From a virus (taxonomy: Duplodnaviria; Heunggongvirae; Uroviricota; Caudoviricetes): a DNA stretch of 5,432 bases. How positions within the stretch are numbered: position 1 is the first letter of the stretch; every line of letters begins with the position of its first letter. Where the stretch lies: the IMG/VR virus record IMGVR_UViG_2698536392_000013. One strand, 5' to 3'. Made by a program: the position numbers and the translations under genes. Positions 1 to 5,432 of the stretch are shown piece by piece. The notes under the pieces were generated by a model. It saw only the letters and a list, made by a program, of their open reading frames with translations, made no database searches and had not been told where the DNA came from.

Positions 1-211
1 AATACACCGTAAGAGCTGGAAAAACCGTGCAGAAGTGGAACTGGCCACACTCACGTGGGTGGACTGGTATAACAATCGACGATTGCTGGAAAGGCTGGGC
101 CATACTCCTCCGGCAGAAGCAGAAAAAGCTTATTATGCTTCCATCGGAAACGATGATCTGGCAGCCTGAGTTTACAGATAAAACACGCTCCAGGAAACCC
201 GGGGCGGTTCA
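1..211 (+). mobile_element. Right end of an IS3-family insertion sequence (IS629/IS1203/IS3411-like terminus); the element continues left of the window
   Basis: Frame 2 is open from the window edge to TGA at 167-169 and encodes ...WVDWYNNRRLLERLGHTPPAEAEKAYYASIGNDDLAA, a typical C-terminus of an rve/DDE transposase. The reverse complement of 170-211 is TGAACCGCCCCGGGTTTCCTGGAGCGTGTTTTATCTGTAAAC, which starts with the TGAACCGCCCCGGG motif I recall for IS629-group terminal inverted repeats. The exact end at 211 is inferred, and the left end and target duplication are outside the window. Confidence 0.7.
2..169 (+). CDS. IS3-family transposase (OrfB-type, rve integrase core), C-terminal 55 codons only; 5' part is outside the window
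   Basis: Open frame entering from the window edge, stop TGA at 167-169; W-x-WYNN-RR-L-x-x-LG-x-TP-AE motif characteristic of IS3/IS481-type transposase C-termini. The ORF-track ORF 27-350 is a different frame and is not this gene. Confidence 0.7.
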   Translation: MHRKSWKNRAEVELATLTWVDWYNNRRLLERLGHTPPAEAEKAYYASIGNDDLAA

Positions 212-1614
212 GCCATTACTTTTGCAACGCGATCGGCCTCTCCCCTTGCCCCCTGCAATTCTCTGGTCAGTTTTTGCAGTTCTCCTGAACCAGCCGCCGC
301 AACAAGCGTCTGCAAACCAACGAACGCCTCTTCTCCGGCGATGTCCTTGAAGAAGGAGACCTGGTCCACCTGTCCGTATTTTTGTGTCGCCTTATAGAGA
401 TCAAGCAGCACATCCTCCATCGGGCGCATTTTGCCTCTGGCGTCAGCAACTGACACCCCCAGCTCTTTCAGTGCATCAGCCGCAGCTTTTGGCGGTGATG
501 CAAGGCGGGACAGACTTGCGCGCATGGCCGTACCAGCATCGCTTCCGCGAAGACCATTATTGGCAAGCATCCCGGCCATGGCCGCCGCTTCTTCAAGACT
601 GATACCAAGTTTTGCGGCAACCGGACAGGTATACTTCATGGTTTCGCCCAGCGCGCGTAAATCAGTATTGGTCCGGGTGAATGCTGCTGTCAGCGTATCG
701 CCAACCCGGTCCATTTGATCGGCTGTCAGGTTGAACTGTGTGAGGATATTGGAGCCTATATCAGCCGTCTCGCCGAGTTCGACGCCACCTGCCAGCGCCA
801 TATTAAGAACACCGGGCAATGCGGCCTGAATGGCCTGCGGAGTAAAACCAGCCATTGCCAGAAAGCTCTGCCCACTGGCGGCATCACTCGCAGTAAACTG
901 TGTTTCAGAACCAAGTTTTAACGCCTGCTCACGCAGCGCCTTAAACTGCGGGCTGTTTTTGTCGATTCGCGTCAGTGCCTGAACGCGGGACATCTCTTTG
1001 CCGAACCCGATCGCAGGCTGCAAAAAACGCCCGGCAGCATAGCCGCCAGCCGCTGCAGCACCAATTGCCAGCGCACCACCTGTTTTCAGTTTTCCCGCGG
1101 TTTCCTGCGCGCGCGAATACCGCTCACGCGCCCGCGTTACACGCGCAAGCGCCTGCCGTTCGCGTTCAAGCTGGTTGTTGTACTGTTCGGTGCGTCTGAT
1201 GGCCTGCTGGATGGTGTTATCGCTGCCTGTCAGGGAAATGCCGTGGCGTTTCAGCTCTCCGCCAAGTTCCCGCATTTTCTGAATTTCCCGTGTGCGCGAT
1301 TCATTCAGGCGTTCAAGCCGGGTGCTTAACTGCTGCATCAGCTTTTGTTGTTTTTCGCTGAGCACTGTACCCGTGCGTTGTAACTGATTAAGGGCGTTAA
1401 GCTGGCGTCGTGCTTTCACGATACCCGCATCCGCTTTACTGACAGCGTCGCGGGCGCGCTCAAATGAACGCGCCTGACGCTCGAGATTTTTGATCGCCCC
1501 CTGCGTTCGCTGGATGGAGTCACCAAACTGCCCCATCAGGCGGCGGGCGTTTTCGGCAGGCCGGGTCAGCCTGTCAACGGCGCTGAAAGCGACCCGGATA
1601 TCAAGAGTCTTCAT
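172..1614 (-). pseudogene. T: Phage tail tape-measure protein (P2 gpT-like), truncated and fused to IS sequence; native T-derived sequence is about 212-1614
   Basis: Translation has a coiled-coil-rich N-terminus (many R/E/Q/L heptads), a Gly/Ala-rich hydrophobic segment (GGALAIGAAAAGGYAAG), then a tape-measure core-like region (LPGVLNMALAGG...DRVGDTLTAAF...AKLGISLEEAAAMAGML...FFKDIAGEEAF). Start is probably ATG 1614-1612 (GGGAG 8 nt upstream, overlapping the E' stop) rather than the GTG at 1650 used by the ORF track. About 468 native codons against roughly 800 expected for a P2-type T; the last ~13 codons (EPPRVSWSVFYL) are read from inside the IS end. Confidence 0.75.
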
Positions 1615-2130
1615 TGTCTGCACTCCCGCTGCGAAGTGCCGCCCGCTCACGCCAGCTAACCACTTCGCCGGGCGTCATCATGAAGATTTCGGCGGGCGAC
1701 CAGTTAAAAATAACGGCAATATCTGCCACAAAGTCTTCTATGTGCTCAAAGCACACAACCGTGATCAGGCTTCCGTCGCCTGTTCGTTCTTCCCGCCAGA
1801 GTCCGCACCGCTCAAAAAATTTACGGCAACCGCACATAACTGAATAAAGTCACGGGATGCCATTTTTTTGATCGTCACTTCATCCAGTCGCGGTGATGTC
1901 ACGCGTGACAGCAGCGTAAACATGGATTCCGCTTTCAGATTCAGCACATCAGACAGCGACAAATCTCGCAGAGATCCAGCCTGCTCAATAGCTCCGGTGA
2001 TCTCCACATACGTGATTTTTTCGCCGCCTCGCTCAATTGGTTGGGTAAGTTTTACGCCACGCTCACTGGTTTCTTTCACAGTGTCAGCAACGACCGTGTT
2101 TTCGGTATCGATGTTTTTCGTCTCTTTCAT
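1601..2130 (-). CDS. E+E': E+E' fusion chaperone produced by programmed -1 ribosomal frameshift (predicted about 176 aa: 106 codons of E, then 70 codons in the -1 frame)
   Basis: The -1 frame relative to E is open from 1849 down to stop TGA 1603-1601. The in-frame heptamer T TTT TTG (minus strand, 1819-1813) sits inside this overlap, and the E' stop overlaps the T start by 14 nt. Confidence 0.6.
1765..2130 (-). CDS. E: Tail assembly chaperone E (P2 gpE-like), 121 aa zero-frame product
   Basis: Position between the tube gene and the tape-measure gene; strong RBS (AAGGAG 7 nt upstream of ATG 2130-2128); contains the slippery heptamer and an overlapping -1 frame ORF, as in P2 E/E' and lambda G/GT. 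Confidence 0.7.
   Translation of the reverse strand: MKETKNIDTENTVVADTVKETSERGVKLTQPIERGGEKITYVEITGAIEQAGSLRDLSLSDVLNLKAESMFTLLSRVTSPRLDEVTIKKMASRDFIQLCAVAVNFLSGADSGGKNEQATEA
1813..1819 (-). promoter_or_regulatory. Programmed -1 frameshift slippery heptamer T TTT TTG (X XXY YYZ in the E frame)
   Basis: Minus-strand codons GTA AAT TTT TTG AGC in the E frame; after a -1 slip the next codon is GAG (1813-1811), continuing into the E' frame (ERCGLWREE...). Confidence 0.6.
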
Positions 2131-2184
2131 CAGGAAACTCCTTTCAGTCAGAGGCGACGCACTGCGCCGCCTGCATATTACTTA

Positions 2185-2697
2185 TCAGCCAAGCCCAAGC
2201 GCGGAACGGATGCGATCGGGCACAATGTCCTTGCCGTCCTTCCGGTAAATGAAGTTCAGCAGGTCAATCTCCCACAACGGGCGATCGTTAACACTCAGCT
2301 TGTAGTAGGTGTTTTTAATGGCGTAAGTGTGTGATGTGGCTTCGCCCTGTTTGGCTTCCCCCATATCAATTTCCGTCACACGTCCGCGCATCTCGATTTC
2401 ATACAGATCGCTTTCTGCATCGGTGTAGTATTCACCCGCAAAACGCAGCAGCGTGCCGTCAATCGTGCCGCCATATTTAAGGAACAGCGCACGAACAGCT
2501 CCCCCCATAACAAAACTCGCATCAAGCGCGGAGTCGTCCAGACCGAGATCAATACTTACCGCCCCCATCATGCCACCACCACGATAGCTGTCGGTTTTGC
2601 GCGTCAGTTTAGGCAGGGTGACGGACGTCACCTTACCCACTTCGTTTTCACCATCCACAAACAGCGTAAAAAAGCGAAGATGTTTTGGTACAGCCAT
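2185..2697 (-). CDS. FII: Contractile tail tube protein (P2 gpFII-like), 170 aa
   Basis: Size and sequence features match the P2 FII tube family as I recall it (e.g. TLPKLTRK...YRG.GM.G...DLGLDD...RFAGEY...EIDMGE.KQGE). Start ATG overlaps the FI stop (TGATG at 2699-2695), suggesting translational coupling. Confidence 0.88.
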   Translation of the reverse strand: MAVPKHLRFFTLFVDGENEVGKVTSVTLPKLTRKTDSYRGGGMMGAVSIDLGLDDSALDASFVMGGAVRALFLKYGGTIDGTLLRFAGEYYTDAESDLYEIEMRGRVTEIDMGEAKQGEATSHTYAIKNTYYKLSVNDRPLWEIDLLNFIYRKDGKDIVPDRIRSALGLG

Positions 2698-5148: not shown

Positions 5149-5154
5149 GCAACT

Positions 5155-5160
5155 TAGAAT
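5155..5160 (+). promoter_or_regulatory. Candidate -10 hexamer (TAGAAT) for an ogr promoter
   Basis: TAGAAT lies about 30 nt upstream of the ogr start. No convincing -35 at 17-18 bp spacing (TAGCAG/ATAGCA), so this is a weak call. Confidence 0.2.
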
Positions 5161-5190
5161 AGCAGCAGCACCACGTTAAGGGAGGTCGCT

Positions 5191-5432
5191 ATGTTCCGTT
5201 GTCCGCTTTGTGGCGCATCTGCCCGTATCCGCACCAGTCGTCCGGAAAATGATTCAAACACCGTGCGGCAAAAGTATTACCAGTGTAACAACCTGGAATG
5301 CGGCGTATGCTTCTCAACACTGGAAGCTTTCCATAAATTCACATCAAAACACACCTCCGGCGTTCACTCTTCAGAAGGTATCCCGTGGCATGAGCTGCCA
5401 GCTTTGAGGTGTACTGGCAATAGCGGACACTA
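5191..5432 (+). CDS. ogr: Ogr/Delta-family zinc-finger late transcription activator, 5' portion; at least 80 codons with no stop before the window end
   Basis: ATG 5191 preceded by SD AAGGGAGG. N-terminus MFRCPLCGASARIRTSR...YYQCNNLEC has the C-x2-C...C-x4-C arrangement and the position directly downstream of D seen for P2 Ogr (recalled MFHCPLC...YHQCQNVNC). Missing from the ORF track because it runs off the window. Confidence 0.8.
   Translation, partial: MFRCPLCGASARIRTSRPENDSNTVRQKYYQCNNLECGVCFSTLEAFHKFTSKHTSGVHSSEGIPWHELPALRCTGNSGH

Follow-up and report, generated by a model that had tools for sequence, protein, structure and literature searches.

The window and its source prophage

The stretch of DNA that we analyzed, referred to here as the window, is 5,432 bp in length and is a 100% match to NZ_CP027325.1, the chromosome of E. 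coli 2013C-4830. It comes from a decayed E. coli prophage of the P88-like type (Xuanwuvirus, Peduoviridae), of which it forms the right-hand tail module. Pfam matches were obtained for FI, FII, E′, T, U and D of the prophage, as in a contractile-tail module of the Peduoviridae, and one zinc-finger activator gene of the Ogr/Delta type (PF04606) adjoins D. Taken from Pfam and from close annotated relatives, the gene identities are unambiguous. In a comparison covering only the window and its 20-kb flanks, phage P88 showed 95.2% nucleotide identity over 94% of the window, in collinear order, which places the prophage in Xuanwuvirus; the ICTV genus threshold of ∼70% refers to whole-genome identity.

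The prophage carries several lesions: T is interrupted by IS629, ogr and the terminase gene each by an IS600 copy, and other parts have frameshifts. The three IS copies are one IS629 and two IS600, the latter in opposite orientation. At the same chromosomal site, one close relative carries the IS-free prophage L004, whose minus strand has an intact U-T-E′-E-FII-FI block and whose plus strand has D-ogr.

Both ends of the window are occupied by IS sequence. The left end (positions 1..211, plus strand) is the right end of IS629, an IS3-family element, as judged by similarity and annotation; it comprises the last part of the transposase ORF together with the right inverted repeat, and its terminal letters are ...CCCGGGGCGGTTCA. 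It is 97–99% identical to the IS629 copies of Stx phages, among which the VT1-Sakai copy is annotated as IS629, and the source genome annotation gives the left-edge element as an IS3-family transposase. GCC (212..214) is the 3-bp target-site duplication, as it abuts both IS ends in the source region (L002). At the right end, one IS600 end (5405..5432, minus strand) is inserted into the 3′ end of ogr; the match to IS-free relatives ends at 5404, and the source annotation has an IS600 transposase just beyond the window's right edge.

The minus-strand tail block and the plus-strand D-ogr genes

FI-FII-E-E′-T are read from the minus strand, D-ogr from the plus strand, and the FI and D start codons are separated by 157 bp. 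This reading was already made in an earlier note on the same DNA, and it is confirmed by the Pfam matches and by the start codons of FI (3881) and D (4039). FI, the tail sheath gene (2697..3881, minus), matches PF04984, PF22671 and PF17482; it is followed by FII, the tail tube gene (2185..2697, minus; PF04985, E = 2e-46). The E gene (1765..2130, minus) codes for a tail assembly chaperone of 121 aa; it has no Pfam match of its own, and was assigned from its position and its frameshift site; the annotations give it as a tail protein. The slippery heptamer T-TTT-TTG at 1819..1813 would allow a −1 slip from E into E′ (1601..1756, minus; PF06528, Phage_P2_GpE), giving one E+E′ fusion product of 176 aa.

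The last gene of the block within the window is T, which codes for the tape measure protein. Its 5′ part (212..1614, minus; PF10145, E = 1.2e-56), ∼467 codons in length, is cut by IS629; it is collinear with the intact 935-aa T of L004 and with the T of P88, from which it diverges over ∼110 bp. The rest of T lies to the left of IS629, at 17494-18906 of L002 on the minus strand. The gpU gene (PF06995) is located further left, at 16993-17481 of L002, also on the minus strand; gpU is thus missing from the window because the gene sits beyond the window edge. The earlier suggestion that the whole FI-U operon is inverted, which would put U and the rest of T beyond the IS, agrees with the positions of both in the source chromosome.

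The D gene (4039..5148, plus; PF05954) codes for a 369-aa protein of the baseplate hub/late control D family. Over the full length, it is 52% identical to P2 gpD and 99% identical to P88 D. The start codon is backed by the full-length alignment to P2 gpD, and one Shine-Dalgarno sequence, GGGAGGG, is located at 4027-4033. PGAP currently calls D too short in P88-like, SEN4-like and related P2-family prophages. The ogr gene (5191..5404, plus), which codes for the late-gene activator, retains the first 71 of its 86 codons with the zinc finger intact (PF04606, residues 3–49); the product is identical to the Ogr of an intact relative through residue 71 and divergent beyond, the C-terminal 15 aa having been replaced by the IS600 insertion.

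The divergent layout is shared by many relatives

Like the lineage of the window, the F operon of P2 contains the same eight genes, with the TTTTTTG frameshift heptamer in E and ogr downstream of D. In P2, however, a single strand carries all of FI-FII-E-E′-T-U-D-ogr, and the transcript from pF runs through U into D. Different from P2, the lineage of the window has FI-U inverted, and D is ∼5.3 kb and a change of strand away from U. The contrast with P2 that the earlier note had drawn is therefore real.

The layout recurs in isolated phages of three ICTV genera. P88 has the same order, with U-T-E′-E-FII-FI on the minus strand and D on the plus strand, and the same 157-bp spacer. SEN4 and SEN5 (Senquatrovirus) and 500465-2 (Gemsvirus), although of different genera, have the same inverted FI-U block divergent from D; the D of SEN5 is 62.5% identical to that of the window. 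P88, PhiSM and SEN4/5 form plaques (PMC5285337, PMC6456863, PMC5261728).

All 80 IMG/VR relatives have the divergent layout, and the FI|D junction, with a collinear 157-bp spacer, was found in 1355 of 5426 complete E. coli genomes, which is about a quarter. Among 80 species-representative loci, 57, from ∼25 genera of Enterobacterales, are divergent and have D proteins 61–98% identical to that of the window; in the other 23, D is 46–53% identical and U lies directly upstream of D on the same strand. All loci at or above 61% identity thus have the divergent layout and all at or below 53% the P2 layout; this split in identity, which is not a tree, suggests that the inverted layout had a single origin. 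The outgroups in Pseudomonas, Burkholderia and Mannheimia carry the P2 order, which is therefore taken as ancestral.

A misassembly, or chimeric join, at 3882-4038 has nothing in its favor besides the unusual order. The junction is collinear in the 1355 independently assembled E. coli genomes and in the 80 IMG/VR contigs, phages sequenced by different laboratories have it too, as do 57 other species; we consider a chimera, which the earlier note had asked to be checked, excluded. The same collinearity, with P88 and with the complete E. coli genomes, upholds the remark that no IS lies at the FI/D junction.

A recent rearrangement confined to this strain, in which recombination between IS copies or of some other kind inverted FI-U, would fit a prophage with three IS copies and a window with IS sequence at both ends. 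However, in the IS-free relatives neither the order nor the 157-bp junction differs; IS629 lies within T, where it left a clean 3-bp duplication, and the two T halves share one strand; and the inverted block is bordered by no IS and flanked by no inverted repeats. When we looked for inverted repeats bordering the FI-U block in L004 and SEN5, only short, chance-level pairs were found, none of them at the borders. The IS-free relatives refute such a rearrangement, which we regard as highly improbable.

We give as little weight to the idea that a phage DNA invertase flips FI-U, which would then be a switchable segment present in both orientations in populations. In P88, a DNA invertase of the Gin/Cin type does adjoin U, beside an invertible tail-fibre segment. 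At that place, by contrast, the source prophage and L004 have a serine acetyltransferase gene, and neither they nor SEN5 have an invertase there. The block lacks bounding inverted repeats in L004 and SEN5, and one single orientation was seen in the 80 IMG/VR loci, the 57 species loci and the E. coli genomes. A flip would, moreover, part both operons from the dyad that they are predicted to have in common, which is described below.

Taken together, these comparisons point to a single old inversion of FI-U; they speak against IS activity, an invertase switch and a misassembly. The divergent layout is ordinary for P88-like, SEN4-like and related prophages of the P2 family, which public phage collections already contain, and it is already known. 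The novelty implied by the earlier note is not supported: near and remote relatives alike have the layout as a rule, the very finding that the note had named as making it ordinary. Of its second alternative, a native layout of an unfamiliar lineage, 'native' holds, with D needing a promoter of its own, and 'unfamiliar' does not, as the lineage includes P88, SEN4/5 and 500465-2. Its two alternatives, inversion of FI-U and native layout, are both right in essence and amount to a single explanation. The papers on P88, PhiSM and SEN4/5 are silent on the inversion; in the literature covered, which did not include the Casjens & Grose 2016 review, we found no paper discussing it and none stating the arrangement of promoters between FI and D.

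The FI|D spacer contains a predicted pair of divergent late promoters

Footprinting and the geometry of P2 pP/pO both suggest that the 157-bp FI|D intergenic region (3882..4038) contains two late promoters placed back to back. Footprinting over 56 distinct loci revealed conserved blocks with fixed spacing in this spacer; as the 56 loci are mutually related, the conservation counts given below are not counts of independent events. The extra DNA of O104:H4 and of phage 500465-2, which we had suspected to lie within the spacer, actually sits between D and ogr.

P2-type late promoters that depend on Ogr have a TGT-N12-ACA dyad ∼55 nt upstream of the start and a −10 element, with the −35 element weak or absent, and they are activated by Ogr through the α subunit of RNA polymerase; in an rpoA109 host, P2 Ogr does not function. 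In the window, a TCT-N12-ACA dyad (TCTCCCGATCCGGCGACA) is located at 3961..3978, centred at 3969.5, and is predicted to be an Ogr-type activator site from its conservation in the 56 loci. In the left half-site, the first T is kept in 53 loci and the last T in all 56, and the middle position is G in 32 and C in 24; in the right half-site, the counts are 56 for A, 54 for C and 56 for A. The half-sites are 89% identical in pairwise comparison, versus 45% for the N12 spacer. Thirty-two of the 56 relatives have TGT, the half-site of P2; the window and its closest relatives have TCT, which is one mismatch away. An exact search of the window for TGT-N12-ACA accordingly gave no match, and with one mismatch allowed, 30 sites were found versus 25 expected, a result that is uninformative by itself. 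It was only the 56-locus comparison that made the dyad convincing. The P|O region of L004 carries the same motif, TCT-N12-ACAACAAAAGC.

On the FI side, the predicted −10 element is GATGAT (3921..3926, minus), with a predicted start at ∼3914; 55 of the 56 loci have nAnnAT at precisely this spacing from the dyad. At the mirror-image distance, GACCAT (4013..4018, plus) is the predicted −10 element of D, with a predicted start at ∼4025 and a short leader of ∼14 nt. Both elements lie 43.5–48.5 nt from the dyad centre. The D-side element is less conserved than that of FI: A(−11) is kept in 53/56 loci and T(−7) in 51/56, the full nAnnAT is found at the exact offset in 40/56, and some lineages have indels of 1–4 nt there.

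This arrangement resembles that of P2 pP/pO, in which one dyad lies midway between two outward-facing promoters. The distance from the dyad centre to the predicted FI start is 55.5 nt, as at P2 pP, pO and pF, and the predicted FI and D starts are 111 bp apart, which is the spacing of the mapped pP and pO starts (3016 and 3127), each 55.5 nt from the centre of their annotated activator site. The intergenic regions are also similar in size, 157 bp here and 173 bp in P2. Different from those of pP/pO, the starts at FI|D are predicted, and the pair would serve FI and D, whereas pP/pO serves the capsid and packaging operons.

With the conserved dyad and the mirror-image −10 elements reproducing the pP/pO geometry, D most likely has its own Ogr-dependent late promoter, which would have one activator site in common with the promoter of FI. 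We infer that Ogr binds to the dyad and that the two transcripts begin near 3914 (minus strand) and near 4025 (plus strand).

An alternative is that the layout is native and the dyad serves the FI promoter only, D being transcribed from an ordinary or otherwise regulated promoter. The weaker conservation of the right-hand −10 element is in line with it, as are the deviation of the window's dyad from TGT and the fact that the role of Ogr is predicted from sequence. Against it, A(−11) and T(−7) are kept at the mirror distance in nearly all loci, and a sigma-70 consensus scan of 3700-4200 and 4950-5432 yielded no promoter facing D, giving two chance-level matches, one on the minus strand within D and one within the D 3′ end. 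A terminator scan of the same intervals found one weak terminator-like site, also at chance level. GpD is a structural tail protein and is required late, and P2 provides a precedent for one site acting on two divergent late promoters. We judge a dyad-independent D promoter to be unlikely, though much less so than the misassembly, recent rearrangement or invertase discussed above.

A possible origin of the promoter pair

We think it very probable that FI-FII-E/E′-T-U was inverted as one block relative to D-ogr, once and long ago, that this order was then fixed and is now native, and that a shared Ogr-type dyad drives both FI-U and D. Such a layout would work through the single T(G/C)T-N12-ACA dyad of the 157-bp spacer, which would serve both directions, ∼55 nt upstream of the leftward FI-U promoter and ∼55 nt upstream of the rightward D promoter, much as the P2 pP/pO late promoters use one common site. 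The insertions of IS629 into T and of IS600 into the 3′ end of ogr would be later and unrelated, and would have helped to kill this particular prophage.

With less confidence, we lean toward the view that the inversion placed the dyad of pF beside D and so gave rise, independently, to a second late promoter that is bidirectional and Ogr-dependent. Given the symmetry of the dyad, a −10 element at the mirror distance would have been all that D, once beside the transplanted pF dyad, required in order to form a late transcription unit of its own. If this is true, the spacer would be a natural example of promoter recruitment through the two-sidedness of an activator site, and gpD dosage would no longer be tied to the dosage of the sheath, tube, tape-measure and U genes. 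The predicted FI|D promoter pair would provide a simple, testable case of a tolerated operon inversion. The P2 gene order is an unsuitable template for annotating P88-like, SEN4-like and related P2-family prophages or for judging their integrity.

The ogr gene very probably keeps its own promoter, and the opposite-strand accessory genes that relatives carry between D and ogr show that it is transcribed separately. One opposite-strand gene is located between D and ogr in 500465-2; in SEN5, the ORF with the note 'late control protein ogr' is found downstream of D and faces the other way.

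Gene content of the window and the FI|D junction

Genes were called from a six-frame ORF list together with Pfam, and the gene calls of the earlier note were borne out. The minus strand carries the 5′ part of T (212–1614, PF10145), E′ (1601–1756, PF06528), E (1765–2130), FII (2185–2697, PF04985) and FI (2697–3881, three sheath domains in Pfam). The plus strand carries D (4039–5148, PF05954) and ogr (from 5191, PF04606). The Pfam search gave no match for E, which was assigned by its position and by its frameshift into E′; the two genes are linked by the slippery heptamer T-TTT-TTG (1819..1813), identical in P2, and the E+E′ fusion product is 176 aa in length. 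The D start at 4039 is preceded by a GGGAGGG ribosome-binding site, and D from this start aligns over its full length with P2 gpD, with 52% identity. In both the source genome and the intact relative, the RefSeq (PGAP) annotation gives a D of 266 aa from 4348 (4348–5148) and adds one minus-strand 'hypothetical protein' pseudogene at 4295–4387. PGAP truncates D, because the full 369-aa product read from 4039 can be aligned to P2 gpD beginning at the N-terminus.

The FI and D start codons are back to back across the 157-bp FI|D spacer (3882–4038), exactly as the earlier note had stated. Different from this arrangement, FI, FII, E, E′, T, U, D and ogr of P2 are all on one strand and transcribed from pF.

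Position of gpU in the source prophage

The window is 100% identical to positions 4161432–4166863 of the E. coli 2013C-4830 chromosome (NZ_CP027325.1). Its first 211 nt are the right end of IS629, which is flanked by a 3-bp GCC target duplication. In L002, the window with its 20-kb flanks, the 3′ part of T (17494–18906) lies on the minus strand directly left of IS629, and gpU (16993–17481; PF06995, E = 5e-39) follows on the same strand. The note had placed both there if the operon were inverted, and its statement that gpU is absent from the T/D junction holds for the window, but not as a loss of the gene. The position of gpU is that expected for inversion of the whole FI-U block. At the same chromosomal site (by tRNA-Leu/Cys/Gly and pgsA), one IS-free prophage of 99.7% identity has an intact T of 935 aa; its order is U-T-E′-E-FII-FI on the minus strand and D-ogr-hok on the plus strand.

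Distribution and origin of the divergent layout

FI is divergent from D in all 80 closest IMG/VR relatives, with start-to-start distances of 157–158 nt. One of these also contains a plus-strand gpU-like match upstream of D, which could stem from a further prophage fragment or from rearrangement at this locus. With a 651-bp probe (coverage at least 80%; identity nearly always >95%), the FI|D junction was found in 1355 of 5426 complete E. coli genomes. Among species-representative genomes, 80 loci formed two clean groups by D identity and layout. In 57 loci, spanning ∼25 Enterobacterales genera (including Salmonella, Serratia, Erwinia, Pantoea, Klebsiella, Xenorhabdus, Photorhabdus, Providencia, Morganella, Yersinia and Hafnia), D is 61–98% identical, FI always lies on the opposite strand 126–199 bp upstream of D, and U is on the FI strand, ∼5.2–5.5 kb from D. 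In the other 23 loci, D is 46–53% identical and U always ends 0–57 bp before D and on its strand, which is the P2 order; this order occurs in more distant Peduoviridae of Pseudomonas, Burkholderia and Mannheimia. One contig labelled as a Firmicute, 'Vagococcus sp. WN89Y' (L086, NZ_JBQPOM010000071.1), has the divergent layout and a D of 97% identity, likely due to assembly contamination or mislabelling.

The divergent layout is almost certainly native and widespread. The earlier note regarded it as unusual, unless close relatives routinely had D divergent from FI; they do, and the layout is thus ordinary. Misassembly at the junction was excluded. A strain-specific IS event was also excluded, as the junction is common to IS-free relatives, and so was an invertase switch of FI-U, as a single orientation was seen throughout, no inverted repeats border the block and the source prophage has no invertase. 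The simplest reading is a single old inversion of FI-U that dates to the common ancestor of a large branch of enterobacterial Peduoviridae.

Isolated phages with the same layout

The element belongs to the P2 family and, because of its identity and collinearity, to the P88-like genus. The one-strand canonical F operon is the only family feature lacking, both here and in all relatives. P88 (Xuanwuvirus) is 95% identical across 94% of the window, with identical gene order and 157-bp spacer. Salmonella phage SEN5 (Senquatrovirus; D 62.5% identical) and Escherichia phage 500465-2 (Gemsvirus) have the same divergent order. Plaques have been obtained with P88, PhiSM and SEN4/5 (PMC5285337, PMC6456863, PMC5261728); the layout is therefore a working one. 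Citrobacter phage PhiSM (OR565851.1) is 93.6% identical to window 322–5404, sheath gene included; however, its virions were described with long non-contractile tails, as Siphoviridae (PMC6456863).

P88-like genomes are already public, annotated and classified, and their layout is already known. We found no paper on FI-U inversion or on an FI|D promoter, with incomplete coverage of P2-like prophage reviews. Only the predicted shared-site bidirectional late promoter is mildly new.

Predicted late promoters in the FI|D spacer

Because inverted U cannot read through into D, D needs its own promoter. For 56 distinct loci, the spacers between FI and D were aligned and then re-anchored gap-free on the central motif, a T(G/C)T-N12-ACA dyad (3961–3978, TCTCCCGATCCGGCGACA). 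In the left half-site, T is present in 53/56, G or C in 32 and 24, and T in 56/56 loci; in the right half-site, A, C and A are present in 56/56, 54/56 and 56/56. Averaged over pairs of loci, identity is 0.89 in the half-sites versus 0.45 in the 12-nt spacer. At constant distance from the dyad, 55/56 loci have a minus-strand nAnnAT (GATGAT, 3926 down to 3921). At the mirror-image distance on the plus strand (GACCAT, 4013–4018), A(−11) and T(−7) are conserved in 53/56 and 51/56 loci, with the full nAnnAT at the exact offset in 40/56. If these elements are −10s, transcription would start at ∼3914 (leftward) and ∼4025 (rightward), 111 bp apart, with the dyad centre 55.5 nt from either one.

The mapped P2 pP and pO starts (3016 and 3127) are likewise 111 bp apart and flank one annotated activator site, with a TGT-N12-CCA element centred exactly midway; the activator-to-start distance of P2 pF is also 55–57 nt. 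The P|O spacer of L004, a close IS-free relative, has the same extended motif (TCT-N12-ACAACAAAAGC versus TCT-N12-ACAACAAAAAGC at FI|D) and a correctly spaced TAATCT −10. Given this conservation and spacing, the pP/pO geometry and the L004 motif, the FI|D spacer is reasonably likely to hold back-to-back Ogr-dependent late promoters with one common activator site. From the conservation and spacing observed, we infer Ogr binding, activation and the start sites.

The gap between D and ogr contains an opposite-strand accessory gene, encoding either a DUF3800 or a hypothetical protein, in O104:H4 strains (L169 5532–6701) and phage 500465-2 (L170 5561–6583), and apparently serves as an entry site for cargo genes. 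As relatives tolerate such a gene, ogr probably forms a transcription unit of its own, like P2 ogr.

Decay and mosaicism of the source prophage

The source prophage is dead and heavily decayed. IS600 (window 5405–5432; L002 25405 onward) has displaced the final 15 codons of the 86-codon ogr; the zinc-finger part is intact, and the product might still be active. A second IS600, ∼24 kb from the first and oppositely oriented, splits the terminase gene (L002 1–20000). In the same stretch, frameshifts affect capsid gene N and baseplate gene J, and the lysB-like gene is truncated.

Within T, the ∼110 bp beside IS629 (212–322) match E. coli prophages and gave no P88 alignment by megablast or blastn; the tape-measure gene is mosaic over this small stretch. 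The slot beside U also varies: it holds a serine acetyltransferase gene in the source prophage (L002 16264–16836) and in L004, whereas P88 (L001 15801–17949) has a DNA invertase and an invertible tail-fibre segment there.
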